A model generated the notes under the pieces. It did not search any database. It was given only the letters and a program-made list of their open reading frames with translations, and was not told where the DNA came from. DNA of 64,000 bases from Candidatus Magasanikiibacteriota bacterium (GTDB lineage Bacteria > Patescibacteriota > Patescibacteriia > Magasanikbacterales > UBA922): contig JACPSK010000001.1 in NCBI GenBank assembly GCA_016193335.1, positions 22,716-86,715 of the forward strand, read 5' to 3'. Positions 9,012 through 64,000 of this stretch are shown one piece after another. The translations under genes and the position numbers were made by a program. The number at the start of each line of letters is the position of its first letter. Within the stretch, counting starts at the first letter, position 1.

Positions 9012-9015
9012 ATCT

Positions 9016-9468
9016 ATGGATACCTTATCACCAGAAAAACGTGCCGAACAGGAGAGAGAAAGTATCGTCAGTTCTATTCTGGCCTCCGCTGAAAGAGAAC
9101 CCGCAGATAAAGACATCCCAAGCCTTGTGGTCTTCCGCTATGGCAGCAAAGAATTGGATCTGGTCTATTTTGCCGACAAAGGAACCTTCAGCACTGCGGT
9201 TGAGGGGTATGAAGATAGAGAGAGAAAACCAGAGGAAACACGTTTCTTGTATATGGCGGCGAAGAGAGCTATGCAAGAAATCGCGGATCGCTCTCAAACT
9301 GAAATAGAATACACTCTCGAAACCTCAAACGAAAAAATAGTCCCATTCGCCCAAAGTCACGGAAAAGAGATTTTTCGTTGGGATTCTGAAACGAAGGAAG
9401 AATTTGAAATAAAAAAGCGAGGAAAAGTTGATATTTGGTATTTCAAAAAAACATTCAAGCCACTTTGA
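9016..9468 (+). CDS. Hypothetical acidic protein
   Basis: ORF with good coding texture in an operon-like arrangement. No motif recognised. Confidence 0.4.
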   Translation: MDTLSPEKRAEQERESIVSSILASAEREPADKDIPSLVVFRYGSKELDLVYFADKGTFSTAVEGYEDRERKPEETRFLYMAAKRAMQEIADRSQTEIEYTLETSNEKIVPFAQSHGKEIFRWDSETKEEFEIKKRGKVDIWYFKKTFKPL

Positions 9469-9474
9469 TAAACT

Positions 9475-47758: not shown

Positions 47759-48727
47759 TTATGCTTTAAGCGTGGTGATAGGTCGGCTCTGGGTTATGTA
47801 AAATGAATTTCCCTCGCGAGCCCATTCAATATCACAGGGAAAACCATAATATTCTTCTATCTTTTTACAAATTCCGGCAAGTTCAATAATATCTTTCCCC
47901 TGTAATTTTTGTTTCTTTCCGGCCTCAAAGGTTTCTACCCATTCATTTGATTCTTTTGATTCTTCATGTTCTCCCATTTTATCTTTTCTGAGCAGCTGTT
48001 TTTCTTGATGAGAAACGCTAATATCAAGAATCATCATATCCGCTTTATCCACGACGTAGCTGTCCGGAGTGATCTGTCCACTTACCAGGGCTTCGCCAAG
48101 ACCAAGGCCCGCTTCTATGATCATCTGGTTTTTATCTTCAATAACCGGGTGCACGGTAAAGGCAACACCCGAAACTTCCGACTGAATCATTCTTTGAATG
48201 ACTACCGCCACTGAAACCGGAGTGTCATGCAGTTTTTTTTCAAAACGATAAAAAATGGCTCTGGGAGTAAACAAAGAAGACCAACATTGTTTAACGCGAT
48301 CCAGTAAATCCGTCTGGTTTGTGTTCAAAAAAGTATCCAACTCCCCTGCCCAGCTTGCTATTTCACTGTCTTCGGCAGTGGCGCTGGAACGCACAGCCAC
48401 ATAGGCCGCGCCAAGCTCTTGATAAGCCTGCAGGATCTCTTCGGACAAGTCTTTTGGCAGGGCGGCGTCGTGGATAAGATCTCTTATCACGTTGGCTGCC
48501 TTGTCTACAGAATTTATGTCTTCAGGGTTCACTTCTTTGAGCCTAGCCTCTATTTCTCCGGCAAGATCAGTTTCATCGATAAAACGATCAAAGGCTGAGG
48601 AAATCAGCACAAAACCAGGAGGCACTGATAAGCCTGCTTTTGTTAATTCTCCTAGAGAAGCGCCTTTCCCCCCTGCGAGGCGAACATCTTTTTTCGAGAT
48701 TTCGGTAAACGATTTTAGATATTTCAT
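47759..48727 (-). CDS. Stand-alone PPDK_N nucleotide-binding (ATP-grasp-like) domain protein of the PEP synthase/pyruvate phosphate dikinase/rifampin phosphotransferase family; no His domain
   Basis: GGKGASLGEL...SVPPGFVLIS, VAVRSSATAEDSEIASWAGELDTFLN, VAVVIQRMIQSEVSGVAFTVHP, FPCDIEWAREGNSFYITQSRPIT. Confidence 0.8.
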   Translation of the reverse strand: MKYLKSFTEISKKDVRLAGGKGASLGELTKAGLSVPPGFVLISSAFDRFIDETDLAGEIEARLKEVNPEDINSVDKAANVIRDLIHDAALPKDLSEEILQAYQELGAAYVAVRSSATAEDSEIASWAGELDTFLNTNQTDLLDRVKQCWSSLFTPRAIFYRFEKKLHDTPVSVAVVIQRMIQSEVSGVAFTVHPVIEDKNQMIIEAGLGLGEALVSGQITPDSYVVDKADMMILDISVSHQEKQLLRKDKMGEHEESKESNEWVETFEAGKKQKLQGKDIIELAGICKKIEEYYGFPCDIEWAREGNSFYITQSRPITTLKA

Positions 48728-48975
48728 GAATACAGCATAGCAGAAAAAATTGACAAAAACAAGAAAAAAGGATATGTCAGGAATGGCACACCAGGGCTGC
48801 CAATAGGGGTCTGTACTTTTCTCGGCAGCTCTACATAACCTGCTCTTTTGTCCTCATAGACTGCGGACGCGCCGATAAACGGTTCTCACCTTTACCGTTT
48901 GGCGCGTCCGCTTCCCACCACTCATAAAATATCTTCTTTTCAGACAAGCCCAAAATTCGCTTGTACGAATTTTGG

Positions 48976-49383
48976 TCAGGATCCAAATTTAACCTCATGT
49001 TTTTTTTCGAAACTTCGCATGAATTTCTTAAAACTCAAGCTGTCTTTGGCAAAGGCATTCCCGTCTTCTTGAACTTTATTTTCCAAATTTTTAAGCCGTT
49101 CATTATTATCTTCTACTGTCATTTGGATACCCATCAAACGTCCATTGACCGATGCGAGATTTATTTCAAGTTCTGAGACGTTTTGTTTTAACACAGAGAC
49201 ATCCTGCTTGAGGACAGAGACATCCCGCTTCAACACAGATACATCAGCTTCCACGATATTGAGGCTGGACTGCATGGCGGCATTGTCTTTTATAAAAACC
49301 ACGATTTCTAATATTTCATCAATTTTTTTGCCAAAATTTTCAAACATACAAACCTCCTTAAAAATTATACCTTCCATTATCAA
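48976..49383 (-). CDS. Small coiled-coil protein, paralog of 58597..58932; contains three tandem 21-nt (heptad DVSVLKx) repeats
   Basis: N-terminus FENFGKKIDEILEIVVFIKDNAA matches FEEKLNDILDIVIFIKDTAA of the paralog. Repeats at about 49195..49262. Confidence 0.5.
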   Translation of the reverse strand: MIMEGIIFKEVCMFENFGKKIDEILEIVVFIKDNAAMQSSLNIVEADVSVLKRDVSVLKQDVSVLKQNVSELEINLASVNGRLMGIQMTVEDNNERLKNLENKVQEDGNAFAKDSLSFKKFMRSFEKKHEVKFGS

Positions 49384-49470
49384 GCAAGCATATTTTCAGG
49401 TCAAGGACAAAGATTAAATTTTGGTAAATCTTATTTCGGAAGACCCTCGATATCCAAAAAACTCAGTGTC

Positions 49471-50991
49471 TCAATTTTGAGTGCGCAGAGCTTCTATACA
49501 AAGCTCAAAATCATTCCATATCTGTTCGACTTCTACGGCACTGTGGCCTATAACCGTACAACCAAATTTCCCAAAATCTTTCATGGGACTAATCATATGC
49601 ATAAAAACACCGCTTTTTTTCTTATGATTAAAATCAAGTCCTGTCATTTTGATCTGTCCAATAAGTCGTGTCGGCTCTATCCGCCTTAGCCAATCTTGTC
49701 TGCCAAAAGCTTCGGATGCCTTGTAATAGATGTCGCCTTGTTCGGATTCCAAGATGCCTCTTTTTTCATTATATACGGCCTCTGTAAGATACTTCACCCA
49801 AAAATAGGTGTGATTTGTGCCTCCTTTGCGGGCGTTTATTTCCACCGGCCACAAAGACCAAGGTTCTCGCGCATTTTTTCTGCTCAACAAAAAATCCACG
49901 GCTATTATCCCCAAAGCTCCGCGCCTTCTCGTCTCCTTGACAATTTTCAGTCCGGCGTCAACAATAAACTTTTGATATGTGAAATCCGCTGGAAATTTAA
50001 CACCCACATAATCCAAACCCTCCAATATCTGGTCATGAGTGGCAAGAGCTCGAATAGAATGATCAGGTAAAATTTCAAACTGCGCGCTTGGCGAAATTTT
50101 TATAGGCTCATCAATAAATACTTCCACGACCGCGCCCTGCTCGGCGCACGCACGTTCAAAAATAAAAAAATCTTGGCGTATACCTTTCTTAAGAGCCTTT
50201 TTAAATGTTTCAAAAGAAATGAAATTTTGAATTGAAAATTTGACAATGCCGTGTCCCGCGCCTCCACGATTTAGTTTGAGCAGATAATTTTTTACTTTTT
50301 GTTTTTTAGCAAGCTTCTGTAGGACATCATAAGCATGCTCCAAGGAAAAAATATCTTTCTCTCCTGGTATCAGATCCAAACCCGCCTTGGAAAAAACGTC
50401 ACGAGCTTCTGATTTGCTGTTCAAAGCCAAGGACGAATCTGTTAAACCGTATAGCGGAATCTGAAGAAGCACCGCAAGTCTGATTTCCTCAACATTCACT
50501 TGAAAAAATTCAACAAAGGCAGGCTGATTGTATTGTTCGATTGTCTCTTTGATTTTTTTAACATATTCGGAATTGTTCAATATGACTTCTGTAAGTGATT
50601 TCCCTTTTTTTGTGGGTATAGTTAAGATATCAAAACGTCCGCGTAATTCAGGCCTGTCCATTCCTGTAACTTTTGCAAGATGATCAAAAAAATAATCAAC
50701 AATGCAAGGCTCAAAACCTTCCGACAAAACGGCGATCACATGAGTTTTCGGCTGTTTCAAAAAATACGCGAAATACAAATAGCGTTCTTCGTAAAAAACA
50801 GAACCTTCAAATTCCCGCAAAATAAACTTATCAAAAGAAATGCTTGGAATAATCACTAAAGTCCTTCCGCCAGAATAATCTGGTTCTACAATATCGAAAT
50901 TTTTTGCAAGGTCAAACATAAGATGCGGGAAATTGAATCTACAAAAATATAAAGAAACTGTCATGAAATCATGGCTATGGCCATATTTCAC
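49471..50991 (-). CDS. ATP-grasp fold protein (unassigned subfamily)
   Basis: KLNRGGAGHGIVKF and AVDFLLSRKNAREPWSLWPVEINARKGGTNHTY resemble ATP-grasp large-domain strands. Confidence 0.45.
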   Translation of the reverse strand: MKYGHSHDFMTVSLYFCRFNFPHLMFDLAKNFDIVEPDYSGGRTLVIIPSISFDKFILREFEGSVFYEERYLYFAYFLKQPKTHVIAVLSEGFEPCIVDYFFDHLAKVTGMDRPELRGRFDILTIPTKKGKSLTEVILNNSEYVKKIKETIEQYNQPAFVEFFQVNVEEIRLAVLLQIPLYGLTDSSLALNSKSEARDVFSKAGLDLIPGEKDIFSLEHAYDVLQKLAKKQKVKNYLLKLNRGGAGHGIVKFSIQNFISFETFKKALKKGIRQDFFIFERACAEQGAVVEVFIDEPIKISPSAQFEILPDHSIRALATHDQILEGLDYVGVKFPADFTYQKFIVDAGLKIVKETRRRGALGIIAVDFLLSRKNAREPWSLWPVEINARKGGTNHTYFWVKYLTEAVYNEKRGILESEQGDIYYKASEAFGRQDWLRRIEPTRLIGQIKMTGLDFNHKKKSGVFMHMISPMKDFGKFGCTVIGHSAVEVEQIWNDFELCIEALRTQN

Positions 50992-51034
50992 AAAATCAAA
51001 CTAAACTATCCCCTTTGCGATCTCATATTTTATT

Positions 51035-52537
51035 TCACAATTTTCTCACCAAGCCCGCGTAGCCGTCTACTTCCACCATGTCGCCGTCCTTTAATACATC
51101 TCTCGCGAAGCGCGTTTGTATCACGCAGGGGATGCCGGCCTCTCGGGCCAAAGTGGCGGGGTGGGAGGTAATGCCATGGCCGCCGTCGCAGACTATGGCG
51201 CTCGCTTTTATAATAGCCGTGGAAAAACTGGGAACCACTTGCACACTCACGATTACATCTCCCTTTTCAACTTTATGACATTCGTCGGGATTCATCACGA
51301 TTTTAACAGGACCCTGTGCTTTGCCGGGGGAAACCGGCATGCCGGTAAATTCCGTCATCCGAGGGTCTGCGACACAAAATTCTTTATAAAATTTCTCTGC
51401 TTCTTCTCCGGTCGTCAGCTCCGTTTCTTTCCCTTCTCGTGCCCGCCACAGAGACAAAGTCATCTGTTCATTTACTTCATCCGAAAGATTCTCTCCATCA
51501 AGCAAAGCACGTCTCAGTTGGTCGGTTTTCAAAAAACGAACCTGCTTGAGAGCCAAATGAGCGCGTTTGCCGATTTCTTTAAGTACCGGATCAAAATGGT
51601 ACAAAGATTCAGCCACATAACGCTTGCGTAATTCTTTTAGATGCGCCGCGTCGCGCATGGCTTGAAATAATCCCGCTTCTTCTTTATTCAAAGCTAAAGT
51701 GCTCGTGTATTCTGTCTGTTTGTCTTCAATTTCCTGTAAATCATTGAGTAACATTTTGTGTTCTTCTCGGGGGTCTTGGCCAAGAAGCTCTTTAAGAAGT
51801 TTCACGATACTTGGAATATCTAAGACAGGATCCTCATAATCACGCGTAACCCAATAATAGGCTTCAAGATGTTGTTGCATTAAGGCATACAAAGATGCGT
51901 CACTTTGCAGATCCTTGAGAGTGGCATCGAGCAGAGTCTTCTTCCATCGGTGATTGTTTGCTATCTGTATAGCCAATTCAAGCAAAGCCTTTCTATGCAC
52001 CGTGGATACCATTGCCGAGGGTTGTTTGGTTAAAATATTGAGCATCTCCGAAGCTTGTGAAGGATTATCTGAAATTCTTTTTTCAATAATCTTATACAAC
52101 TCTTCATTCAGATAGTCTTCCATAATCCAGATCGTGCCATAACTTGTGTACACGATTTTATACAACCCTTCATATTCGAGCCAGGCATTGTATAATTCTT
52201 CATTTGAGAAGGAACGCAAATCTTTGCTGGAAATACGTTTACAAAATTCAACGAGAATTGTTCCATTTTTATTCTGTAAATCAACAAAACGCGCGTACAT
52301 CCCGGGGTCTTTATGCAGAAGCTCCACAATATGTCGTCCGATCTCTTCAAAACTTTTGGCATCGTGGAAATAAATACCGAGCCTGTCTTTATATATCATC
52401 ATGGTATCTTTGAGATTCATGTCCACATATTCGTGGAGCATTTCAGTCATACCCTCCAGAGACATATAATTCGGGAACGGGCTGATGCGCTGACGCTGTG
52501 AAAGTAAAATCCATTTCCCGCTCTGTTGTTTCGTCAT
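51035..52537 (-). CDS. PEP-utilizer phosphohistidine (swivel) domain protein with ~400-aa helical N-terminal domain, paralog 1 (RPH substrate-binding + His-like)
   Basis: C-terminus GGHGITSHPATLAREAGIPCVIQTRFARDVLKDGDMVEVDGYAGLVRKL. Confidence 0.7.
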   Translation of the reverse strand: MTKQQSGKWILLSQRQRISPFPNYMSLEGMTEMLHEYVDMNLKDTMMIYKDRLGIYFHDAKSFEEIGRHIVELLHKDPGMYARFVDLQNKNGTILVEFCKRISSKDLRSFSNEELYNAWLEYEGLYKIVYTSYGTIWIMEDYLNEELYKIIEKRISDNPSQASEMLNILTKQPSAMVSTVHRKALLELAIQIANNHRWKKTLLDATLKDLQSDASLYALMQQHLEAYYWVTRDYEDPVLDIPSIVKLLKELLGQDPREEHKMLLNDLQEIEDKQTEYTSTLALNKEEAGLFQAMRDAAHLKELRKRYVAESLYHFDPVLKEIGKRAHLALKQVRFLKTDQLRRALLDGENLSDEVNEQMTLSLWRAREGKETELTTGEEAEKFYKEFCVADPRMTEFTGMPVSPGKAQGPVKIVMNPDECHKVEKGDVIVSVQVVPSFSTAIIKASAIVCDGGHGITSHPATLAREAGIPCVIQTRFARDVLKDGDMVEVDGYAGLVRKL

Positions 52538-52556
52538 AATATTAAAAATGCTTTAT

Positions 52557-53402
52557 TTACTCAATTTTGGGTTGTAGACGAGTTTCTATATCCTTTCCCC
52601 ACACGGAGAAAGTGGGATTTTCATTCAAAGAAAAATCAACCTTAAAGCCCTCCGCGTTCTCTATACCGCCTCCGCGTTCAACCGGAGTGAGACCCGTACG
52701 GGCGCTCACCACAGCATCAATGGCAGTGGCATTGGCAGCGCTCACTACGACAATGCGTTTCCCTGGTCCAAGCTGCTTCGCGAGCATAGCCACTCTCTTC
52801 TCGGCCAGCGCTATTCCTTCCTCAACGCGAGCATTCACCTGTTCCGGTCTTTCAACTTCATCGGGCCAGTCGGCAAGAAACCAGGTAGCTACACGCTTAT
52901 CTTGGATAGTTTCTGGAATGCCTAAGGCTCTGTGACGTTCTGGATCGTCCAATTGCGCTTTATACTCATCCGGTATATTGGCGGCGCCAATATCTCTGCG
53001 CGAGCGAGACTTTGGCTCGTCAATCGTACGCAATCCTTCATGCTGCGCATGCATCTCGCCTGTTTGCGGATCCCAACGCATTTTTATTGGTGAAAAAAAT
53101 GTAAATCCACCCTCCTTCAACCGTTCCGCGACACGCATGACAGAAAGTTCTGCGCGCGGATTCCCACTGTCGAAAACCTGAATAATATCCTTGTCCGGGT
53201 CCAATTCACTCATCAAACGTTCTGCCGCCTGATCCAGCTGTGATTCTCCTTCCGGCGTCAAACCACGCTTGGGGTTTGTTTTATCTTTTGTAGTTTCTCC
53301 ATGACGCAAAACATAAGCAGTCATTACCGGCATTTCACGCCTTATTTCTCGATATTCACGAGGAACTTCACCATGGGCGCCGTCTGGCATAGTATAATTC
53401 AC
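52557..53402 (-). CDS. Histidine phosphatase superfamily (phosphoglycerate-mutase-like) protein
   Basis: RHG motif YVLRHGETT near N-terminus. GC looks elevated (about 50%) versus neighbours. Confidence 0.55.
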   Translation of the reverse strand: MNYTMPDGAHGEVPREYREIRREMPVMTAYVLRHGETTKDKTNPKRGLTPEGESQLDQAAERLMSELDPDKDIIQVFDSGNPRAELSVMRVAERLKEGGFTFFSPIKMRWDPQTGEMHAQHEGLRTIDEPKSRSRRDIGAANIPDEYKAQLDDPERHRALGIPETIQDKRVATWFLADWPDEVERPEQVNARVEEGIALAEKRVAMLAKQLGPGKRIVVVSAANATAIDAVVSARTGLTPVERGGGIENAEGFKVDFSLNENPTFSVWGKDIETRLQPKIE

Positions 53403-53495
53403 TAAAATATTGACTTATGTAATAAAAATTTCTCAGATGTACCTCTGCTCGCGTCAAGTATATAAACCTTTTATGTTTAAGACAAGAAAGAACCT

Positions 53496-54101
53496 TTACC
53501 CGCCACAGACCTTATATATACGCGCTATCGCATCTCCCACGTTTTTGTACAAAATAGTCCGGGCTCCCATTCGTTTTGGTTCTTTCAAATTAGCCTCCTG
53601 GTCATCAATGTAAAGCATCTCTTCCGGTTTGACGCGAAAACGCTGACAGAGAAAATACATCGTCTCGGATTTTGCTTTTGGCAATCGATATTCCCATGTA
53701 TTGATCATATTCTTTGAACCAAACACTTTCCAGACTTCGGGGAATAAAACGCGTGTATCGGCCCATTGACTCCGCATATTTTTGGTAAGAATGATAATGC
53801 GGTACTTATTTTTTAATCGCTTTGCGCAATGCAGTATGGGCTTGTTTACTGAAAGCAAACTATAATGCAAATTTCGCAATTCTTTAATGGTTAAAGGTAA
53901 ACTCAAATCCTGTATGGTCCGTGTCCATGCCTCAGTTTGAGTGATTTCCCGCAAAGCCGCCCTGTTTACATATTTTGTGTACATGACTTCATATACCCGC
54001 TCGTATGGAATGCTGAGACGGCGAGACAGAGCTCTGGCCGTGGCCACATAACCACCTTTAAAAATCACACCATGAGCGTCGAAGATGATAAGCTTAATCA
54101 T
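53496..54101 (-). CDS. HAD-like hydrolase (variant motif I D-A-H)
   Basis: LIIFDAHGVIF motif I-like and YIDDQEANL motif IV. Confidence 0.45.
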   Translation of the reverse strand: MIKLIIFDAHGVIFKGGYVATARALSRRLSIPYERVYEVMYTKYVNRAALREITQTEAWTRTIQDLSLPLTIKELRNLHYSLLSVNKPILHCAKRLKNKYRIIILTKNMRSQWADTRVLFPEVWKVFGSKNMINTWEYRLPKAKSETMYFLCQRFRVKPEEMLYIDDQEANLKEPKRMGARTILYKNVGDAIARIYKVCGG

Positions 54102-54234
54102 AAACTCATATAATTAATCGGCCAACATATAAAATTACAATCAATTTCACAGCCTTTCTGTAGCAGACTGAGGGAGTAAGGGATACATTTTTTCATGACA
54201 AGTCGCATTGACTTTAGATTCAGTATATCCCAGA

Positions 54235-55749
54235 TCACAGCTTTCTGACTATCCCTCTGCGCGCGTCCACTTCCACCATGTCACCGTCTTTCAGCACCTT
54301 TGTAGCGATCTTAGTGCCTATCACGCAAGGAATCCCAAGTTCCCGAGAAACAATGGCCGCGTGGCAGGTAATGCCGCCCATGTCGGTAACAATGGCGGCA
54401 GCCTTTTTCATGGCTGACACGATTTCCGGGATGGTCATTTCAGACACCAGTATATCGCCCTTCTCCATTTTAACCATCTCTTTGGTGCTATTTATGATTT
54501 TCACAGAACCTGTGGCCATTCCAGCAAAGGCGATCTGTCCGCTTAGCTCAGTGACGTTCTCTGTATCAGTCTTTTCTTCTTGATCAATCCTCATGCGTGC
54601 TTTCAGTCCTCTCGCCGCTTCTCCGCTCACAAACTCAGCCTGTTCTGTATTAGCGTCAAGAAACAACAAGGAATATTCACTCCGTTCACGCAAAAGCTCG
54701 GCGTCTGTTCCGCCCTTCATCAATGCTTCTTTTAATTCGTCGGGCAAAAGAAAGGGAATATGCTCCATGCTTACATACAAACGACGAGCGGCTTCCCGCA
54801 GTATCCGATGAAGCGTGTACCAAGACATATACTGGTGTTCCTTGCTCCACCCACGCTGAAACATAAAATCTTTGGCAATACGGAATACGGCGCGATACTG
54901 CGCATCCATGTTTAAGAGAGAATATAGACGATCCTGTTCACGTAATGTATTCTTCAATTGATCCTCATGCGCCTTGATCTGTTCTACAATATGAATTTCA
55001 ACGCCTGCGTTCAAAATTTCATTCACATGAGAAATAATATCTTTTTGGGTCCAGGCCGGCCCTACACAGCCAAAAGCCAAAAAAGCATATTTTTGGGTAT
55101 GTTCGATAATAGTCGGATCTTCTGGAGATAAAGAGATCTCGCCCCTCTCGGCTCTCTGAGCAAGTTTAAGCGTATCAATATGCTCTTGACTGATAAGGGT
55201 GTGATCCGTGGGTGTAGTAAGTGTAGAGAGGGTTACTCCGGGGCTTATGGCAAGTCCTCTTTCTTTTATTATTCTCTCTAAATAATCCAGCAAAAAAATA
55301 CTAAAAGCCTCGAAATGCAAATCCATATTCCAGGCGATCGCTCTAATGACATGCAAACGTTGCATCGGATGATATAATTCATCAAAGAGCTCTATCAGTT
55401 CTCTGTTCGTGAGCGATTTTATATCTGTGTTATGAACAATTTTTTTATGCAATTCTTGGATGCGAGGAACCAAAACCGTATTTGATTCATGATGCAGATC
55501 ATCAATCCATTCCGGACGATTCAAAATGGTTTGAATACTGTGTTCAGCGGTCTGTCTCCATTCTGCCCCGATTTGATACATGTTGGTAAGAATTCCCTGA
55601 TATTCATATATGCCTCTAAGAGGCGGTTCCATGCCAAAAGATTTGTTTGAAACAATAAGAGGAGTAAGCAAATGCAGAGGAGGATACTTATGCAGTTTTT
55701 CAATCAAAAGCCAGTGTTCGGATAAAAACGCGGTATGCAGATTGTTCAT
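54235..55749 (-). CDS. PEP-utilizer phosphohistidine domain protein, paralog 2
   Basis: C-terminus GGITCHAAIVSRELGIPCVIGTKIATKVLKDGDMVEVDARRGIVRKL. Confidence 0.7.
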   Translation of the reverse strand: MNNLHTAFLSEHWLLIEKLHKYPPLHLLTPLIVSNKSFGMEPPLRGIYEYQGILTNMYQIGAEWRQTAEHSIQTILNRPEWIDDLHHESNTVLVPRIQELHKKIVHNTDIKSLTNRELIELFDELYHPMQRLHVIRAIAWNMDLHFEAFSIFLLDYLERIIKERGLAISPGVTLSTLTTPTDHTLISQEHIDTLKLAQRAERGEISLSPEDPTIIEHTQKYAFLAFGCVGPAWTQKDIISHVNEILNAGVEIHIVEQIKAHEDQLKNTLREQDRLYSLLNMDAQYRAVFRIAKDFMFQRGWSKEHQYMSWYTLHRILREAARRLYVSMEHIPFLLPDELKEALMKGGTDAELLRERSEYSLLFLDANTEQAEFVSGEAARGLKARMRIDQEEKTDTENVTELSGQIAFAGMATGSVKIINSTKEMVKMEKGDILVSEMTIPEIVSAMKKAAAIVTDMGGITCHAAIVSRELGIPCVIGTKIATKVLKDGDMVEVDARRGIVRKL

Positions 55750-55884
55750 AAAACAGTTTGAAATTTGTTAGTCATCCAGCTTAGAATTCCACTAAATGGG
55801 TTACCTTACCTGGAAAAATGTTAACGCGGGTTTTCGAAAAAACTGATACAAGGTTCATTTTACGATTTTCTCGCATCGCGAAAC

Positions 55885-57411
55885 TCAGAGTCTCTCAACT
55901 TTCCCATGAGTCGCGTCAACGCGTACTTTATCCCCATCGGCTAGCAAGCGCGTGACGTTTTTGACCCCTACCACACAAGGAATATTCAATTCACGGCTGA
56001 CAATTGCCGCGTGGCAGGTAACTCCCCCGTCTTCGGTGACTATAGCTCCGGCCTTTCGCATGGCAGGCAATAAACTGGGGAAAGTAGTATGCGCCAACAT
56101 GATATCGCCTTCATTCATTTTGTCCATTTCAGCGACCGTGTTGACAACCTTTACCTTAGCCACGATGTCGCCCGGGCAGGCACAGCTGCCTTGCAGTTCA
56201 TCGGCGTCTGATTCAAGTTCTTTTTCAAATTCAAGACTTTGTACAAAAAACTCCGCGGCTTCGCCGGTCAGTATATTTTGCCTGCCGTCAATATAGCTGA
56301 GTACGCTAAAAGCTCTGCGCTCGTTTACTATATGCGTATCCATATGTCCGCTCTTCAGAGCTCGGTTAAACTCTTCTTCAGTGAGATGATTAATTTGCGT
56401 CAATGAAACGCAGAGACGCCGAGCGGCCTCTTTGCGAAGCAGATCCATACAATAAAATCCGTAAAACATGGCGTATTTCCGAAAATCTTTGAGCCAAATG
56501 ATATCTCGAGCCACTCCGAGGAAATATCCTGTCTGCTCAGAAATCGGCAGTCGGTTTAGCAGTTGCTTCTGTTTTTCTTTGATGACCTCGTTTCTTTCCT
56601 CAGCTTCCCGAAGCGTCGAGGCCGCGTCTTGGCCGGAAGCAAAAAAATCCGCTAAAGCATACAAATAATGTTCAAGATGATAAGCCGGGCCAACGTATGT
56701 GTACGGCGTCCAACGCCATTTCTTGTAATGTTCAATAAGTAAACTGCGGCGTTCTTCGGCCATAGTCTCAAAACGCGCCTCTATTCCTTTTTTTGTATCA
56801 AATATATTTTTGGTATAAGCATCTTTGCCAATGGTTAGAGCCAGTCTCAAAAAATCGGTTTCTTCTGCCTGCGAAAAATTCTGTTCGCTTGGCGTGGTGA
56901 GCACGGTGTAGGCGCGCATAAGCTCTTCGTCATCATATCCGGACAAGTCATGTTTTAATTTTTCTATGATGTGTTTGGCGAGCAATTCACCATCGCTATC
57001 CACAAACCAGGTCGTGGAAACCGCGATCAGATGCCCTTCAATTTGCAAACGAGAGAGACGCGCGCTCATCTCTATGATCTCCTCATTGCTCAAGGTTCCG
57101 ATGTCTTTGGACTCTACCAGTCGGGCATAGGCTATATATTCTTTGTTAATTTTTCTGCACTGCTCGTGGATGCTTCGTACCCATGCCGGTTCATGTTTAA
57201 TCTTTTCTAAGACAGCCTTTATATACACGGTCATTTGATCGGCCGGAAAATAGGCGTCCGCGCCTTGATCTTTGTATATGATAATTCCGTCCTTTAACGT
57301 ATTGAGGAGCTCCGTTCGTTCTGCATATAAGATAATATCCCGAGGCAAATAATGCATGACCTTATAGTCGAGCAAACCCGGAATCATGGAAAAATTTTTC
57401 CGCCAAGCCAT
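55885..57411 (-). CDS. PEP-utilizer phosphohistidine domain protein, paralog 3
   Basis: C-terminus GGVTCHAAIVSRELNIPCVVGVKNVTRLLADGDKVRVDATHGKVERL. Confidence 0.7.
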   Translation of the reverse strand: MAWRKNFSMIPGLLDYKVMHYLPRDIILYAERTELLNTLKDGIIIYKDQGADAYFPADQMTVYIKAVLEKIKHEPAWVRSIHEQCRKINKEYIAYARLVESKDIGTLSNEEIIEMSARLSRLQIEGHLIAVSTTWFVDSDGELLAKHIIEKLKHDLSGYDDEELMRAYTVLTTPSEQNFSQAEETDFLRLALTIGKDAYTKNIFDTKKGIEARFETMAEERRSLLIEHYKKWRWTPYTYVGPAYHLEHYLYALADFFASGQDAASTLREAEERNEVIKEKQKQLLNRLPISEQTGYFLGVARDIIWLKDFRKYAMFYGFYCMDLLRKEAARRLCVSLTQINHLTEEEFNRALKSGHMDTHIVNERRAFSVLSYIDGRQNILTGEAAEFFVQSLEFEKELESDADELQGSCACPGDIVAKVKVVNTVAEMDKMNEGDIMLAHTTFPSLLPAMRKAGAIVTEDGGVTCHAAIVSRELNIPCVVGVKNVTRLLADGDKVRVDATHGKVERL

Positions 57412-57445
57412 ATGAACATAATGGTATACAATATGTTTGACAAAA

Positions 57446-57474
57446 GCAAGAAAAAATGCTATACTAAGCTGTTA
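57446..57474 (+). promoter_or_regulatory. Consensus sigma70-type promoter TTGACA-17-TATACT upstream of the high-GC gene 57652..58368
   Basis: ttgacaaaagcaagaaaaaatgctatact read directly. AT-rich, host-like. Confidence 0.5.
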
Positions 57475-57651
57475 TTCTTCAATATATACATTCTGCTTAT
57501 TCAAGCAGAATTTTATCGTTTATTTTGAGTCTGTCTCTGGTCTTAATAAACTAAGGCAAAAGACAGGCCCAAAACGCGCGCCTGCTTCGGGCTGAGCTAC
57601 CCTCTCTCAAGGGTGCTGAAGCAGAATCTCACAACGACAAGGGAGAAAAAC

Positions 57652-58368
57652 ATGGCCTTGGCCAAGGTGTCCGTCTACGACTTGCGTCACTATGAGAGGC
57701 AGAAGGGTTGTCCCGGTCAACCCCCGACCTTGTACGGGGAACTGACCTGCCGCGTGTTGCGAGAGATTTTGCTCGGGCGCAGGGCGCTCGAGGACATGCT
57801 GGTCTTGACCAGTCCGCAGGAGCGGGCCTGGGGGACCGGGCGCCTCGTTGCCTCGCCTGAGGCCGAGATGGGCCACTTTGACATGCGGAAGATGAACTGG
57901 CTCGAGAGCGCCACCACGCGCCTCATGGATGGCGGCAAGGAGCTCACCGAGCTAGCCGGCCGCTTCGGGGTCAGTGTCGAGCAGGCGCTCATGGTCCTGC
58001 CCCAGTTCGCGAGCCTTGTTTGCGACTGGACCGTGGAGGCCTTCTTCGGCCTCACGGGTGCCATCGCGGATGGCGAGCACCAGAACGTCTTGATGTTCTC
58101 GCATGGCGGGCAGGTGGATGCCCGAGCCATTTTCATGAAGAAGTTCAAGGCAGAGCCGGGCATGAAGCCGCAGAACTTGAAGCCGATGCTCGACATGCGC
58201 TTCCTGAACGGCCGCTGCGCCGACACCTGCGAGGGCTACGTCTACGACCTCCAGGTGGACACCGCGGCCGGCCTCATCGAGCGGGTCTTCGATGTTCAGC
58301 GCATCGAGCTCCCGGCCCAGTTCAAGGCACTGGGGGGCGGCGCCCTGGACCGCCTGCTCGCCGGCTGA
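57652..58368 (+). CDS. Hypothetical protein on a high-GC island (start at MALAKV with GGGAGA RBS)
   Basis: GC3-rich codon usage unlike flanks. Sole plus-strand gene within a minus-strand cluster. Confidence 0.5.
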   Translation: MALAKVSVYDLRHYERQKGCPGQPPTLYGELTCRVLREILLGRRALEDMLVLTSPQERAWGTGRLVASPEAEMGHFDMRKMNWLESATTRLMDGGKELTELAGRFGVSVEQALMVLPQFASLVCDWTVEAFFGLTGAIADGEHQNVLMFSHGGQVDARAIFMKKFKAEPGMKPQNLKPMLDMRFLNGRCADTCEGYVYDLQVDTAAGLIERVFDVQRIELPAQFKALGGGALDRLLAG

Positions 58369-58559
58369 TCTTTTCCGCGGCCGCCAAATCTAGCCCGATT
58401 CGGGCAGATACCTATCCGGCGGCCGCGCTTCGCCCCTCCTTTTCGACTGCTCTTTGGAGCGCGTCCCAATAATCGGTCCCTACCACTACCGATGGACGCG
58501 CTCTTCCCACCTCTTATGCGTTTTGTCTTTATCCGCTCCATAAGACGCTTGAGAAGTAA

Positions 58560-58590
58560 AAACATCCGGCTAAGCCGGATGTTTTTTGTT
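58560..58590. terminator. Bidirectional rho-independent terminator (aaaaacatccggctaagccggatgttttttg)
   Basis: Perfect stem flanked by an A-run and a T-run. Confidence 0.6.
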
Positions 58591-58596
58591 GATTTT

Positions 58597-58932
58597 CTAT
58601 GATTCTGATTTCTGCACTTCCAGACGCTTGACTCGTTTTTTCAAAACCACTATTTCTCTGGCAAACAAACCGCCGTCTTCATGGACTTTTGTTTCAAGAT
58701 TTTCAAAGCGAATATCGATTTTATCCAAGGTATAATGAACTTGGGAGAGTTCAGCTTTCACAGAACACATATCTTCGTTAAGAATTGAGACCTGTTGTTG
58801 CAAAACCGAAGTATCGGCTTTAAGTTCGCTTCTCAATTCCCGGATATCCTCTTTTGTCGCCGCAGTATCCTTTATGAAAATGACAATATCCAATATATCA
58901 TTTAATTTCTCTTCAAACATCTCTGACGTCAT
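58597..58932 (-). CDS. Small coiled-coil protein, paralog of 48976..49383
   Basis: Shared N-terminal FEEKLNDILDIVIFIKDTAA motif; heptad-rich. Confidence 0.5.
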   Translation of the reverse strand: MTSEMFEEKLNDILDIVIFIKDTAATKEDIRELRSELKADTSVLQQQVSILNEDMCSVKAELSQVHYTLDKIDIRFENLETKVHEDGGLFAREIVVLKKRVKRLEVQKSES

Positions 58933-59030
58933 AATAGTATTCCTCCCTTCTATACTTCACAGCTAGCAGTGAAGTACTTCAGTGTAAATTAATAGTACAA
59001 TTCCAATAATACTTCAGACATCACTGCCTA

Positions 59031-60569
59031 TCAAGGCAAAAGATTAAATTTTTCTAATCTACGTACTATACCAAGCGCGGTGTCTACTTCCACCATATCA
59101 CCATCTTTCAATATTTTTGTCGCGCATCTTGTACCTACAATGCAAGGCAGACCCAGCTCTCTCGACACAATGGCCGCGTGCGAGAGCAAACCGCCTTCAT
59201 CCGTTACAATGGCCCCGGCACGTTCCATGGCTGGCACAAGAAGCGGATTTGTTGCCGAAGCCACCAAAATATCGCCCCGCTCCAATCGTTCCGCGTTTTT
59301 ATTCGTAAGCACAATACAAACTCTGCCCTCACAAGGCAAGGCGCTTTTCGAGGCGACCTGACCCTTCAATTCTTTCACCATATCATACTCTTCGTAACGC
59401 AGCTCATCTTTCTTATATTCAATCAGATCAGCCCCCACATATACCATAATCGTCTTGTCATCGAGCACAATGCTCGGGTCCTTTGCTCGAGCCTCGAGAT
59501 CCTCTGAATTGACTTCCAAAACGCCAGCCTTAAGAGATCGCAATAATTCCTCACCCCGAAGATTCACCAGCTTAATATAGGAAATATCAAAGTCATTCGC
59601 AAGGCGTTGAAATAAAGTACTAAACGTATGCACCGCGTAAGCGTAAGAAGCCTCAGCATTATTGGAAGCCGCCGCCCAAGCGGCCGCTGAATTAATATGC
59701 TTTAAAGTTACGTCTGATAAACCGAGGATATCTCGAAGCAGAAATCCTTTTTTGCTCATGCGTTTCGCTTCCTCGATTTTTTTTCGCTCTTTATCCAAAC
59801 CTTTTTTTATTAAATCCCGCACGCGATTTGTTAAGACTTCTCTATCGTATCCACTGCCATGCAAGAGATACCTGCCCAAATGAGCAAACATAGCGAGATG
59901 AGCATCCACTCTTCGATTGAATTCTTCATTCATACCATGGGATTCGGCATATTCAGCCAACTCACACAAGGCAATTCGTTCCAGTTGGTATTCCGAGCTC
60001 TCGGGAAGTTGTAATAAGTCGTTAAAATATTCATTTTGTTTCAGGACATCGCCTTCAGATTCTGCAATGGCTTTTAAAATAATATCAGAGAGAATGCGGT
60101 TGACCATCACATAGTGATAGGCATATGCCCACTGCGACCTCGTAGTCAACAAAAATCCTTCCATAGCCGTATAAATACTTGTTGAATCAGCCCGACTAAA
60201 ATCCGTATCTTTGTATGTGTCCGCATGTGAACGCACTCGCCGCATGCGCGCATTATAATCATGAGCATAATCCACCAGTATGCCCGGGCTGGATAATTCT
60301 AGATTCCGTAGATATTCAATGTAATCATCGTATGTCCTTTTCGAAAACCAACGCGCGCCGTCCAGCTGCCGATACTCACAGGGTTCATATTCTGTTTGTT
60401 TTTCGTATAATCCAAGCAAGCCATGGCGATAGGCTTCCATGACCGTATCAATCAAAAGCACTGGATGCGGATCGCCGCGACGCGCGACTTCAACCCAAAA
60501 CGTCATATAAACCTGTTTATATTTTACGAATAATTCCTCTTTTCGCGTCCACTTCCACGGTATCGCCAT
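59031..60569 (-). CDS. PEP-utilizer phosphohistidine domain protein, paralog 4 (start trimmed to MAIPWKW to avoid 92-nt overlap with paralog 5)
   Basis: C-terminus GGLLSHAAIVSRELGLPCIVGTRCATKILKDGDMVEVDTALGIVRRL. Confidence 0.65.
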   Translation of the reverse strand: MAIPWKWTRKEELFVKYKQVYMTFWVEVARRGDPHPVLLIDTVMEAYRHGLLGLYEKQTEYEPCEYRQLDGARWFSKRTYDDYIEYLRNLELSSPGILVDYAHDYNARMRRVRSHADTYKDTDFSRADSTSIYTAMEGFLLTTRSQWAYAYHYVMVNRILSDIILKAIAESEGDVLKQNEYFNDLLQLPESSEYQLERIALCELAEYAESHGMNEEFNRRVDAHLAMFAHLGRYLLHGSGYDREVLTNRVRDLIKKGLDKERKKIEEAKRMSKKGFLLRDILGLSDVTLKHINSAAAWAAASNNAEASYAYAVHTFSTLFQRLANDFDISYIKLVNLRGEELLRSLKAGVLEVNSEDLEARAKDPSIVLDDKTIMVYVGADLIEYKKDELRYEEYDMVKELKGQVASKSALPCEGRVCIVLTNKNAERLERGDILVASATNPLLVPAMERAGAIVTDEGGLLSHAAIVSRELGLPCIVGTRCATKILKDGDMVEVDTALGIVRRLEKFNLLP

Positions 60570-62037
60570 CTTTGAGGACTTGAGCCACTTGTTTCGCGCC
60601 GATAACACAGGGTATCCCCAATTCTCTGCTCACGATGGCCGCGTGCGAGGTAACCCCGCCCTGTTCGGTTACAATCGCGCCGGCACGTTTCATGGCAGGC
60701 AACAAATCTGGATCAGTGGAAATGGATACCAAAATGTCGCCATCTCGCAATTTTTTCATGTCACCCGCCCGAAATATCAACGCCACTTTACCCTTCGCGT
60801 ATCCCGGAGACGCCACCTGTCCTCTAAATTCGCTGAGTGAGATATCGACCTTCTCGAACGTTTGCTTCATAATTTCTTCAGCCTCTTTCCCGGACAAAAT
60901 AATTTCCTTGCCTTGCTCCGCGTAATACGCGCAGCGCTCGGTTCGTTTTTGAAGTTCCTCAGCATTACATTCATGACGCAATAACATAGCTTCCACTTCA
61001 TTCGGAACCGCGAAGCGAAGTTGCTTTACCGAAAGCTCCATCCGCAATGCAATTTCTTTAAGCACTCGATCCATCTGATAAAGCGCATATAGTTGGGCAT
61101 AACGCCGATATATTTTTGTTACCATAAAATCGCCGAACACAGAGCACAATCTCCTGAGGTCAAGATTGGCGTGTATACGTTCAAAAAGCGCCTCTCGATT
61201 TTGAGCGGCTTCTTTCAAACGTTCTTCATTATTTTTTCGTATCTGCGAGGCTGATATGCCTTTCGAAAAAATATCTTTCAGCTCTCGCACAAGCATTTCA
61301 AGTGTATTTTCACCTGCCACGAAAATATATTTTGTGTAGTGATATTTTTCACGATGCTGTTCCAGCATGGCCCGCACGGAATCATTCAATGAAACAAAAA
61401 TCTTGGCCAGATTTTTTTCCAAAAACAATTTTTTCTGAGCAAGATCTTTTTCTATTTCAACCGCTATTTGCAAAAGTTCGTCCTGTTCTGTATATATCAA
61501 AGATCTTTTTGTCGGCTGAGTAAGCGTAACAAAATATTCCGGTATCATTTCGTCTGCTCCCATAACGGAAGAACGGAGCATCTCTAATACACGATTCGTA
61601 AAATTATTGTGAAACATGTCCGACGCGGGAGGAATCCAACACCATGTATAATATTCCTGGTGCGCGTCAAAATGACCCTTGTATATCCGCCATAATTGTT
61701 CGTTCGACAATTCTTTCAGCCCATCTTTTGACGGAATTTTTTCGCAATATGAACGCAAGCTATCGGCCTCTCGGATTATTTCTCTATTTATGGTATGGCC
61801 ATAATCCGGTTCCTTTATGATTCTATTCACCAGATGTTCACCCATTTCATATGAATCGCGATCGTCGAAATAAAACCACAGTTCATAGCCCCGAAAACCC
61901 GCGAGTACTTTGCCGTATGCCCGTCCTGTGTGCCTGCCGAATAAATGTACAAAAGAATTGAGCCATATATAAGAAAAAAACAGATCAATATCTTTGATAT
62001 GCTCACCAAGAATCCATGGCCTGTCTTCTCCGATCAT
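60517..62037 (-). CDS. PEP-utilizer phosphohistidine domain protein, paralog 5
   Basis: C-terminus GGVTSHAAIVSRELGIPCVIGAKQVAQVLKDGDTVEVDAKRGIIRKI. Confidence 0.7.
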   Translation of the reverse strand: MIGEDRPWILGEHIKDIDLFFSYIWLNSFVHLFGRHTGRAYGKVLAGFRGYELWFYFDDRDSYEMGEHLVNRIIKEPDYGHTINREIIREADSLRSYCEKIPSKDGLKELSNEQLWRIYKGHFDAHQEYYTWCWIPPASDMFHNNFTNRVLEMLRSSVMGADEMIPEYFVTLTQPTKRSLIYTEQDELLQIAVEIEKDLAQKKLFLEKNLAKIFVSLNDSVRAMLEQHREKYHYTKYIFVAGENTLEMLVRELKDIFSKGISASQIRKNNEERLKEAAQNREALFERIHANLDLRRLCSVFGDFMVTKIYRRYAQLYALYQMDRVLKEIALRMELSVKQLRFAVPNEVEAMLLRHECNAEELQKRTERCAYYAEQGKEIILSGKEAEEIMKQTFEKVDISLSEFRGQVASPGYAKGKVALIFRAGDMKKLRDGDILVSISTDPDLLPAMKRAGAIVTEQGGVTSHAAIVSRELGIPCVIGAKQVAQVLKDGDTVEVDAKRGIIRKI

Positions 62038-62086: not shown

Positions 62087-62500
62087 TTAAGGAACTCTCT
62101 TGGTGTAAGTCGCGTCAAACTCAAAACCGGCGAAAGAAGTCAAAACCAAAATTTCAAGAAGAGAGAGATAAAATTTCGGGTCCGCGTAAAATTGTAAAAA
62201 TAAATCTTTGAAGTTGCTTCCGAGGTAGGCTGAAATGGATCCAATCACCAAGAGATCAAGAAAAAAACCGACTATGAGGGTGAGAATGCCCAACATGAAT
62301 CCTTTTTTCAAGGAAGGGGCGTCAACCCTAAAATACCATTTGGAAAGCAACAAGGTCAAAGGAATGGCAAGTACCCAAAACACGGCGTATTCTCTGAACC
62401 CAAACACAGGAATTCCTGATACGATTTGTATTAATGCAAGTACTATAAATGAAAAAACGTAGAAGAAAACACCAAAACACAAAGCTCTTTTATAGTTCAT
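62087..62500 (-). CDS. Hypothetical 4-TM membrane protein
   Basis: Hydrophobic helices only. Confidence 0.35.
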   Translation of the reverse strand: MNYKRALCFGVFFYVFSFIVLALIQIVSGIPVFGFREYAVFWVLAIPLTLLLSKWYFRVDAPSLKKGFMLGILTLIVGFFLDLLVIGSISAYLGSNFKDLFLQFYADPKFYLSLLEILVLTSFAGFEFDATYTKRVP

Positions 62501-62518: not shown

Positions 62519-64000
62519 CTAATCAAAACTAATAATCTGATCAGCCTGGATCTTTTGTCCGGCTAGAGAAGGAGGCTTGGAGTCGGAATTCTCAGCAAAA
62601 GAACTCTTTGTCCGGGGAAGAACAACTTTCGCTGGTTCTATATTTTGTTTTTCTTGAAGACTACTCTGATTTTGATTTTCTCCGCCATAATCCTGAGTTT
62701 TGTTTGGAGAAAATCCTTGAGCCATAGCCCCGCTGGCCTGCGTGCCCGCCCCTGGTCCTTGCTTCCGTTTTCGGTTCCGTTTTCGCTTCCTCTTTTTCTT
62801 GTCCTGATTTTGAGGCTGAGGATCCTCAACCTTCTGTTGTGGAAAGCCGCTTTCTTCCCTGAGCGAAGGCGATGCTTCATTCTTGACTGCGGGCGGAAGC
62901 CTTGGCTCTTGTTGTAAACCTAAAAGCTGATCAGATCGTCCAAAATTAGATTCGGGTTCAGACCTCTTGTTCTCAACGCGAGAAGACCGAATCTCGGGTT
63001 TGTCAGGCTGTCTGAACTCGGGTTTCTGAACGCCTGCCGCCTGCATGAGTGCTTCTCTGTCTTCTTTGGGTAAAAGATCTCTCAATGAGACGGCCTTGTT
63101 TTGTTTTTGATCCGGTCGTTCCGGTTTTGGAATGACAAGAGGTTTAGCCTGTTTCGGGCGCTCGTCTAATTCATCGTCTTCAGTGTCAATTTCATCTTCA
63201 TCGCCATCTTCGTCTTCTTGCAATTCTCCAAGACCGCTCCAACGTAAAATCTTTTGCTCTATAACATCTCGCTGTTTGGCGTAGCGTTCGCGGGACACGC
63301 GTATGACTTTTTCCGCCGAACCGGTGGGTTTGCCAATGGGCGGCATGGTTTTGGCGCTAAAAGGCTGAGAAGCCACCCCATCTATCATGAGTTTGAGAAT
63401 AACGTCATATTTGGCAAGATTAACTACGTCTTCTTCAGTAAAAGTGGGAGTGAACTCTTTGGTTAGTGTCTCTGAATCAGCGCCGCCCACTCTAAAGGTC
63501 ACAATGGTGCCCACATTCCCGAACACCGCGTCAGCCACTATTTCATCAAGCTGCATAATATATTGATGGGCCATGATCAGGCTCAGTCTATATTTTCTCG
63601 CCTCAGATAAAATATTGGCAAAACTGGGAGTGGCGAAATTTTGAAATTCATCGACATAGAGAAAGAAATCCACGCGATCCTCTTCCGGTGTGTCCACCCG
63701 TTCCATGGCCGCAAGCTGGATTTTGGTGATAAGCATGCCTCCCAAAAGCCTGCTATTGTCTTCTCCAATCCGTCCTTTGGACAGATTCATGATCAAAATT
63801 TTTCCAGAATCCATGATCTCGCGTATGTTGATGGTGGATTTCACCTGAGCCACCATATTGCGGATAACCGAAGCGGACAAAAATTGCCCTATTTTATTTT
63901 GAATCGGAGCAACGGCTTCTTGCTGATAACGATCGTTGTAATTGGCGAATTCATTTTGCCAAAATGATTTTATAACCGGATCATGGAGTTTTTTGACCAC
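62519..64000 (-). CDS. TraG/TraD/VirD4-like (or HerA/DUF87-like) AAA ATPase C-terminal region with long acidic then KR-rich low-complexity tail; N-terminus beyond window
   Basis: FLYVDEFQNFATPSFANILSEARKYRLSLIMAHQYIMQL (Walker B DE ... RKY ... Q sensor) typical of T4 coupling proteins. Tail EDEDGDEDEIDTEDDELDE...KKKRKRKRNRKRK. Confidence 0.45.
   Translation of the reverse strand: MVKKLHDPVIKSFWQNEFANYNDRYQQEAVAPIQNKIGQFLSASVIRNMVAQVKSTINIREIMDSGKILIMNLSKGRIGEDNSRLLGGMLITKIQLAAMERVDTPEEDRVDFFLYVDEFQNFATPSFANILSEARKYRLSLIMAHQYIMQLDEIVADAVFGNVGTIVTFRVGGADSETLTKEFTPTFTEEDVVNLAKYDVILKLMIDGVASQPFSAKTMPPIGKPTGSAEKVIRVSRERYAKQRDVIEQKILRWSGLGELQEDEDGDEDEIDTEDDELDERPKQAKPLVIPKPERPDQKQNKAVSLRDLLPKEDREALMQAAGVQKPEFRQPDKPEIRSSRVENKRSEPESNFGRSDQLLGLQQEPRLPPAVKNEASPSLREESGFPQQKVEDPQPQNQDKKKRKRKRNRKRKQGPGAGTQASGAMAQGFSPNKTQDYGGENQNQSSLQEKQNIEPAKVVLPRTKSSFAENSDSKPPSLAGQKIQADQIISFD

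Follow-up and report, generated by a model that had tools for sequence, protein, structure and literature searches.

Some of the dikinases closest to the system described here are built from separate components. In HpeHI, CreHI and phenylphosphate synthase (PpsAB) an ATP-grasp protein is split from a second protein, which combines substrate-binding and swivel domains; the intermediate that is phosphorylated in the Hpe pathway loses its phosphate at a later step (PMC12167813). Another close system, the rifampin phosphotransferase (RPH) with its described domains (PMC4844700), consists of a single chain. Here we analyze a gene at positions 57652-58368 (plus strand) of a 64,000-nt stretch of a Candidatus Magasanikiibacteriota genome (contig JACPSK010000001.1, positions 22,716 to 86,715), referred to as the window. 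The gene forms the third of three GC-rich islands and lies inside a split dikinase cluster (47759-62037) of a GC-poor groundwater bacterium. Its product adds a new and very divergent protein to an established superfamily, the histidine phosphatases, and sits within a new variant of the split-dikinase system; the unusual part of the finding is the persistent, gene-specific, extreme GC content.

As in HpeHI, CreHI and PpsAB, the ATP-grasp protein of the cluster is separate from the proteins that carry the substrate-binding part and the swivel histidine; both components, PPDK_N and swivel-histidine, are found in the one cluster. Unlike in the two-component dikinases, a single ATP-grasp gene stands with five swivel paralogues, which are only about 29% identical to one another, and these subunits are smaller (about 500 aa versus 71 kDa for HpeH). 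The organism, in contrast to those with HpeHI-type systems, is metabolically reduced, and two histidine-phosphatase-like genes and a haloacid dehalogenase (HAD) gene are conserved partners of the cluster.

The protein did not reveal its family by itself. A word-indexed search of 5.8 billion clusters returned the 238-aa protein and one relative only, P0002, which is about 61-62% identical. With a profile of these two sequences, HMMER found nine further full-length relatives among 1.84 billion representatives (E=1e-14 to 1e-5). They are 23-27% identical to the window protein, and the family thus has 11 representatives in all. Three of the relatives reach the gathering score of Pfam His_Phos_1 (P0007 with 27.0, P0010 with 28.2 and P0008 with 21.7 bits); the orthologue P0002 scores 11.7 bits, the cut-off of PF00300 being 21.7. 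The family profile matches chains of Sts-1 (UBASH3B), PGM, CobC and SixA in the PDB (E=3e-4 to 1e-2). AlphaFold2 (AF2) modeled the protein with a predicted local distance difference test (pLDDT) score of 35 when given the two-sequence alignment, and with a pLDDT of 88.6 and a predicted template modeling (pTM) score of 0.88 when given all 11 sequences. In a Foldseek search with the AF2 model the top 50 matches all had one fold, the PGM-like alpha/beta/alpha fold. All 11 sequences have R58, H151 and E194, and R12 and H13 are nearly invariant; in comparison with Sts-1, H151 falls on the histidine of the SHGG type and R58 on the arginine of SPxxR. By alignment the protein therefore possesses the catalytic core of a histidine phosphatase, i. 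e. the histidine and arginine of the RHG motif, a second arginine and a second histidine.

Because three remote relatives pass the Pfam threshold, the family profile matches known structures, and both the fold and the catalytic residues agree, we assign the 238-aa protein to the histidine-phosphatase (PGM/SixA/PhoE) superfamily, within which it is highly divergent. This answers a question that the original prediction had left to a homology and structure search. Two points count against this assignment or limit its reach: direct profile searches with the 238-aa protein gave no Pfam or NCBIfam match even at E<=10, and the phosphatase activity and its substrate are predicted. A sequence search of the PDB found only low-complexity matches to designed repeat proteins, and comparison with PADLOC and PHROGs gave nothing meaningful. 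Members of histidine phosphatase branch 1 (PF00300: dPGM, PhoE, CobC, TIGAR, Sts-1, SixA) have an RHG motif, whereas its glycine is a tyrosine in the window protein (RHY); some relatives have RHC or RHH instead. Two further differences of the window protein from PF00300 are a helical insertion (about residues 82-140) and an invariant TCEG motif (E194); the protein lies below every curated sequence threshold, and the RHY family, with its 11 representatives, is tied to the dikinase cluster. It does not fit the SixA type, which would be marked by a match to the TIGR00249 equivalog in a compact domain of about 160 aa.

The original prediction had raised a link to the phosphotransfer system of the PEP-utilizers (phosphoenolpyruvate-utilizing) genes. 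This is supported by remote homologues that lie beside PPDK_N and multi-copy PEP-utilizers genes in at least four further genome lineages. P0006 (L008) adjoins PPDK_N, a HAD gene and three PEP-utilizers genes; P0007 (L010/L011/L017) is divergent from PPDK_N and followed by a HAD gene and five PEP-utilizers genes; P0009 (L014) adjoins PPDK_N; and P0010 (L015) is divergent from PPDK_N, followed by six PEP-utilizers genes. Together with the window and L007, the contig of P0002, the family thus co-localizes with the dikinase cluster in distant genomes, and a module of one ATP-grasp protein and many swivel proteins recurs in L008, L010/L011 and L015 with 3-6 swivel paralogues. L012/L013 are exceptions with a different gene context, and the contigs L009 and L018 are too short for judging cluster linkage. 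On L009, which has only 2.4 kb, the gene adjoins DUF6922 and AbiEii genes and no dikinase cluster is visible.

In the relatives at L008, L010/L011/L017, L014 and L015 the gene is usually on the strand opposite to the dikinase cluster. The original prediction had correctly described the window gene as the only plus-strand gene in a long minus-strand cluster; across 30101-64000 it is the sole credible gene on the plus strand, all other credible genes being on the minus strand. This lone placement is a conserved trait and not a sign of insertion. On L010 the gene directly downstream of the RHY-type gene (8825-9688) is homologous to 52557-53402 of the window (29% identity, E=4e-20). Therefore the two phosphatase-like proteins form a conserved pair, whose genes became separated in the lineage of the window. 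In the neighbor-joining tree the window protein is closest to cluster-associated proteins from low-GC genomes, and the relatives at L008 and L010 have ordinary GC. As the family, where the contigs are long enough to judge, is mostly encoded next to split dikinase clusters, we regard the gene as a native, vertically retained accessory gene.

Sharp islands of GC content and codon usage are routinely read as horizontal transfer, and the original prediction had called the gene an orphan whose pattern would suit a foreign gene domesticated under a native promoter, possibly a cargo of the phosphotransfer system. The composition on which that view was based is real. The window has an overall GC content of 43.4%, and at a resolution of 200 nt only three segments in its whole length exceed 56% GC for more than 400 nt (2251-2700, 5851-7100 and 57551-58550). 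The gene has a total GC of 0.65, with 0.65, 0.42 and 0.88 at the first, second and third codon positions (GC1, GC2, GC3), compared with a GC3 of 0.428±0.043 for the 54 other open reading frames (ORFs; z=10.4), so that its description as GC3-rich holds. The proposed start, MALAKV, also stands; the ORF is open and codes for 238 aa instead of 239. The edges of the island are abrupt at gene scale, as the original prediction requires, and not gradual: within about 200 nt GC changes from 0.28 to 0.64 at the left edge and from 0.70 to 0.42 at the right edge. Translational optimization was ruled out as the cause of the high GC3. Ribosomal-protein genes and rpoA (S9, L13, S4, S11, S13, RpoA), which are native and highly expressed, have a GC3 of 0.39-0.42, and therefore GC-ending codons are not preferred in this Magasanikbacteria host.

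An artefact is effectively refuted, whether it be a chimeric or contaminated assembly or a chance ORF in GC-rich DNA that does not code for protein. GC-rich DNA does hold long chance ORFs, and antisense ORFs of 169 and 264 aa occur. However, six independent Logan contigs are identical to the window base for base, both island junctions included, and therefore the locus is not a chimera; it is also syntenic in a different study. The ORF itself behaves as a gene: GC3 is far above GC2, indels in the alignment come in whole-codon steps, the ratio of nonsynonymous to synonymous divergence (dN/dS) is 0.4, and the confident AF2 model has a known fold with conserved catalytic residues.

The contig L007, from a separate sequencing project, carries P0002 between orthologues of the 508-aa swivel gene and of the 111-aa gene, which is the corresponding site. 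Its orthologues of the 504-aa and the 508-aa swivel gene share 84% and 82% identity, respectively, with those of the window; they are true orthologues, since the swivel paralogues of the window share just 29% identity among themselves. The L007 copy has a GC of 0.67 and a GC3 of 0.93, and its flanks have a GC of 0.44. Between window and L007 the flanking genes have dS values of 1.32 and 1.14 and dN values of 0.09 and 0.10, the island gene a dS of 0.80 and a dN of 0.33. The flanking genes are thus near-saturated in synonymous divergence, and the island gene has long been resident at this site.

Four-fold degenerate sites were counted at conserved codons between window and L007. In the island gene, 44 of 76 such sites are the same, 24 differ by G<->C, 8 by GC<->AT and none by A<->T. 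The corresponding numbers for the two flanking genes are 167 of 317 sites the same, 25 G<->C, 116 GC<->AT and 9 A<->T (Fisher p=1e-9, odds ratio 14). The flank sites were also used to fit a reversible substitution model. With an ancestor of GC only as its starting point, this model predicts a GC of 0.78 at four-fold sites (GC4) in each descendant, with 11% G<->C and 33% GC<->AT differences; observed in the island are GC4 values of 0.91 and 0.96, with 32% G<->C and 11% GC<->AT differences. Synonymous change in the island is thus channeled to G<->C, and GC->AT change is suppressed about 3-fold. Judged from these sites, the GC-richness appears to be actively maintained and not to be an un-ameliorated relic.

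These results bear directly on an ancient xenologous replacement, in which the ancestor of window and L007 would have received the gene between the native promoter and terminator from an unsampled donor of about 65-70% GC, followed by slow amelioration. We consider this rather unlikely. The flank model predicts a lower GC4 and mostly GC<->AT change for it, and amelioration in the form of synonymous change dominated by GC->AT was not seen in the two sequences compared. No GC-rich homologue or donor was found in the 5.8 billion clusters, the 1.84 billion representatives or the plasmid, phage, IMG/VR viral, GTDB and JGI collections; JGI metagenome searches gave only orthologues of P0007. Composition deviates sharply from the host genome, as in horizontal islands, and such islands likewise come as single-gene cassettes with their own promoter and terminator and with further islands nearby. 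Unlike them, the island has a positional orthologue in a diverged relative, so that no insertion is apparent in comparison with L007, and it belongs to a family that is native to the corresponding cluster in low-GC genomes. There are no mobility genes; none of the islands is bordered by terminal or direct repeats, which ruled out a mobile element, and the edges of island 3 have no integrase; the closest tRNAs are 25 kb distant. The view of the gene as an orphan or a recent foreign insertion is therefore not upheld. What a replacement would explain well is the GC shift in each codon position, the likewise shifted amino-acid usage, the abrupt edges, the long branch with only 23-27% identity to other family members, and the presence of two further GC islands in 64 kb, one of them with a GC3 of 0.98; island 1, moreover, evolves in a host-like pattern that is compatible with amelioration.

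The GC elevation also recurs within the family, which speaks against a replacement as well. The difference in GC between gene and flanks is +0.22 in the window, +0.23 in L007, +0.13 in L009 and +0.12 in L014, and +0.04, +0.03, +0.03, +0.02 and -0.01 at the remaining five loci; the elevated members (+0.12 to +0.23) are spread over three neighbor-joining clades. L009 196-921 and L014 2760-3518 are moderate GC islands limited to the coding sequence (CDS), with 0.57 versus 0.44 and 0.53 versus 0.41, respectively, and these two family members are 26% identical to the window protein.

Alternatively, the gene could have been imported or converted repeatedly from a GC-rich copy of the whole transcription unit elsewhere (e. 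g. an unsampled plasmid, phage or co-resident relative), so that the alleles of the two lineages diverged in a GC-rich background. This would explain the G<->C-dominated divergence together with the retained GC, and the untranslated regions (UTRs), which are more conserved than the CDS, might have served as recombination anchors. Yet a second copy or a GC-rich relative was not found in the same metagenomes or in the other collections, and the donor would also need an AT-rich promoter and UTRs of the native type. We regard this scenario as improbable.

The G<->C-dominated spectrum, a GC4 above the model, the recurrent elevation and the lack of a GC-rich homologue and of mobility marks favor a fixation bias in place. 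The extreme GC is a lineage-specific state of the CDS and the UTR hairpins that has persisted since the divergence of window and L007 (flank dS about 1.1-1.3). This implies that the cause of the GC content of island 3 is a fixation bias at the site, i. e. selection on mRNA or DNA, or GC-biased gene conversion (gBGC). In its direction the pattern resembles gBGC or selection for GC in bacteria, namely a fixation bias for G/C at synonymous sites against AT-biased mutation, a subject on which Hildebrand et al. in 2010 and Raghavan et al. in 2012 have reportedly worked. Lassalle et al. (2015) reported effects that extend over a genome or region and shift GC3 by a few points (PMC4450053), whereas a single gene stands about 45 GC3 points above its neighbors here. 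A literature search on GC-rich islands in the Candidate Phyla Radiation (CPR), Patescibacteria or Magasanikbacteria found nothing relevant.

Several observations weigh against maintenance in place. To our knowledge, no mechanism has been established in bacteria for a gene-specific GC drive this large, and reported effects of gBGC are far smaller (PMC4450053). The argument is based on one orthologue pair with 76 four-fold sites and unpolarized substitutions. GC1, GC2 and the amino-acid composition of the island gene are also shifted, as an origin in a GC-rich genome would give; the ratio of the residues G, A, R and P to F, Y, M, I, N and K (GARP/FYMINK) is 1.57, versus about 0.8 in the neighbors. 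The presence of three GC islands in 64 kb, two of which are true orphans, resembles a habit of acquisition, and the four-fold pattern of island 1 compared with its orthologue is ordinary and host-like (6 G<->C versus 17 GC<->AT). Finally, RNA structure within the CDS exceeds that of synonymous shuffles in the window copy (z=-3.3) and not in L007 (z=-0.35); because the two orthologues disagree, selection for a specific mRNA structure in the CDS was ruled out.

Taken together, we hold with modest confidence that a native, cluster-linked histidine phosphatase whose GC-richness is kept up by a fixation bias in place is the best explanation overall. The more general notion, that a gene-specific force in this bacterium and some of its relatives keeps individual strongly promoted, fast-evolving genes at a GC3 of at least 0.9 in a 43% GC genome, is tentative and may well prove wrong. 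Such a force, if any, could be selection for GC-rich, long-lived mRNAs or an unusually strong local gBGC. Selection for a GC-rich, nuclease-resistant, long-lived transcript as the cause is a weak and speculative proposal.

The gene and its signals (57437-58586) form a self-contained transcription unit, which, judged from its promoter, is apparently strongly expressed. The original prediction had the promoter sequence right and its position, 57446-57474, wrong by 9 nt. Only five sites in the 64 kb, both strands included, match the consensus at 11 or more of 12 positions, and the promoter of the island gene is one of them. The others include those of tRNA-Gln, of the S13 ribosomal-protein gene (S13-S11-S4-rpoA operon) and of island 1; because the promoter falls into this class of tRNA and ribosomal-protein promoters, strong transcription would be expected. 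Its -10 element ends 186 nt upstream of the ATG, and the transcript probably starts at about 57472. The ribosome binding site GGGAGA had been recognized correctly (57641-57646, 5 nt upstream of the ATG), and the bidirectional terminator, placed at 58560-58590, was confirmed with slightly different stem coordinates (Table 1).

Much of this unit is kept at the L007 locus: the promoter as TTGACA-17-TATATT, part of the leader, a hairpin of the 3' UTR and the terminator, with several of the changes being compensatory. The leader folds more stably than shuffled sequences (z=-4.6), and its stretch 57523-57600 is about 95% identical in L007, i. e. more conserved than the CDS. This may partly be owed to a divergent promoter of the minus-strand gene 55885-57411. 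In the alignment of the 3' UTR and terminator, five pairs are changed on both sides, and the terminator stem differs in sequence while its pairing is kept. Neither leader nor 3' UTR matched Rfam at gathering score, and only chance-level matches appeared at E<=10; a riboswitch or other known RNA was ruled out as no Rfam family matched. The leader motif is unique in the window, where no second copy was found. Inside the leader, a hairpin with a T run (57567-57592) resembles a minus-strand terminator and overlaps the conserved leader segment; it could stop antisense read-through across island 3.

A common layout was seen upstream of other family members as well (positions in Table 1). A TTGACA promoter close to consensus comes with two hairpins, a small one near the 5' end and a long one, which has 13-19 bp in minimum-free-energy folds; the start codon is preceded by a CA-rich linker. 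The long hairpin varies in sequence between the genomes of the family, and its pairing is retained. This suggests that the predicted family leader is a structural element, possibly a stabilizer or a processing site, that is not present in Rfam.

Table 1. Positions of the features discussed (window coordinates unless a contig is given)
Feature	Position	Strand	Details
Promoter of island 1	2007-2035		TTGACA-17-TATAGT, with TG
Leader inverted repeat of island 1	2063-2099/2152-2188		37-nt arms
CDS of island 1	2221-2709		162 aa, GC3 0.67; weak cytidine-deaminase motifs CAE...PCxxC
CDS of island 2 (island 5694-7093)	7003-6017	-	328 aa, GC3 0.98; promoter TTGACC-17-TATACT
3' UTR of island 2	to terminator 5694-5731	-	about 290 nt
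Stand-alone ATP-grasp (PPDK_N), split dikinase component	47759-48727	-	Pfam E=1.6e-91
Additional ATP-grasp-like protein	49471-50991		
Swivel-histidine (PEP-utilizers) paralogue 1	51035-52537	-	
Second histidine-phosphatase-like protein	52557-53402	-	RHGE type, weakly SixA-like
HAD hydrolase	53496-54101	-	also in corresponding cluster of L008 and L010
Swivel-histidine paralogues 2 and 3	54235-57411 (starts 54235, 55885)	-	504 and 508 aa
Sigma-70-type promoter of island 3	57437-57465	+	TTGACA-17-TATACT, TG extended -10; 11/12 consensus match
Structured 5' leader	57472-57651	+	about 180 nt; hairpins 57490-57511, 57523-57575, 57582-57624
CDS, divergent histidine-phosphatase-superfamily protein, RHY type	57652-58368	+	238 aa; R12-H13, S54-P-Q-x-R58, H151, E194
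GC-rich structured 3' UTR	58369-58557	+	hairpins 58377-58428, 58456-58504, 58509-58557
Bidirectional intrinsic terminator	58558-58586	.	stem, then T run; common to convergent gene 58597-58932
Swivel-histidine paralogues 4 and 5	59031-62037 (59031, 60517)	-	
Family leaders with common layout	L008 5850-6003; L010 7840-8003; L018 400-567; L014 2495-2759; L009 1-195		

The ATP-grasp protein of the cluster matches the ATP-grasp domain of the Listeria rifampin phosphotransferase (5hv6, E=1e-56), and each of the five proteins of about 500 aa has a PEP-utilizers swivel domain at its C-terminus. In the 508-aa paralogue, which has a TCH histidine motif, the match spans RPH residues 620-865, where the rifampin-binding domain and the swivel domain lie. 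The longest ORF of paralogue 4 (59031-60608, GTG start at 60608) overlaps paralogue 5 (60517-62037) by 92 nt; in the public gene call it has 491 aa with a start near 60506, and the listed ORF of 525 aa is probably over-extended. Three small coiled-coil-like ORFs (111-137 aa; 48976-49383, 58597-58932 and 62087-62500) lie scattered through the cluster. None of them is assigned to a family, and their only matches are spurious coiled-coil ones such as DndD/PbeC. A reading of the locus as a defense system was rejected, PADLOC having given only coiled-coil noise. Directly beyond the cluster lies a gene for a TraG/VirD4-like type IV coupling protein (62519-64000), which is cut by the window end and has 672 aa in L001.

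The other two islands differ in their relationships. Island 1 has an orthologue on L016 (1-953) that is 83% identical, with a GC3 of 0.69 and a matching layout of promoter, leader and terminator. The protein of island 2 had neither a Pfam nor a PHROG match, and searches of IMG/VR, phages, plasmids and the 5.8 billion clusters found no homologue. Dinucleotide-signature distances, which are noisy, are 111-222 between the three islands compared with 105±36 from host to host; a common donor signature, which the original prediction had suggested looking for, is thus not convincing.

A likely interpretation of the locus is that the dikinase cluster, with one ATP-grasp protein and five swivel-histidine paralogues, installs a phosphate, which the 238-aa protein would remove. 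Its target would be either the phosphorylated small molecules, in parallel with the Hpe pathway, or the phospho-histidine on the swivel domains, in the manner of SixA. By this, it would reset or tune the dikinase system. This coupling is inferred from gene neighborhood and fold only. The arrangement suggests that the dikinase module has a built-in dephosphorylation arm.

The gene has the signature of an island, yet it is a conserved, syntenic part of a native cluster and has apparently been kept GC-rich during synonymous turnover. If a gene-specific force of the kind considered above exists, an island of sharply different composition is not necessarily foreign DNA in these genomes, with the phosphatase of island 3 as the clearest example, and caution is advised in composition-based calls of horizontal gene transfer in the reduced genomes of uncultivated bacteria. 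If confirmed with more orthologues, the gene would offer a clean test, provided by nature, of how forces other than mutation shape base composition in bacteria, where the roles of selection and biased gene conversion have long been debated. For the protein family, our analysis defines a very rare histidine-phosphatase clade with an RHY motif. It also defines a conserved module in which one ATP-grasp protein is combined with many swivel-histidine paralogues, a HAD protein and two histidine phosphatases, and this module extends the recently recognized two-component small-molecule dikinases into the CPR.

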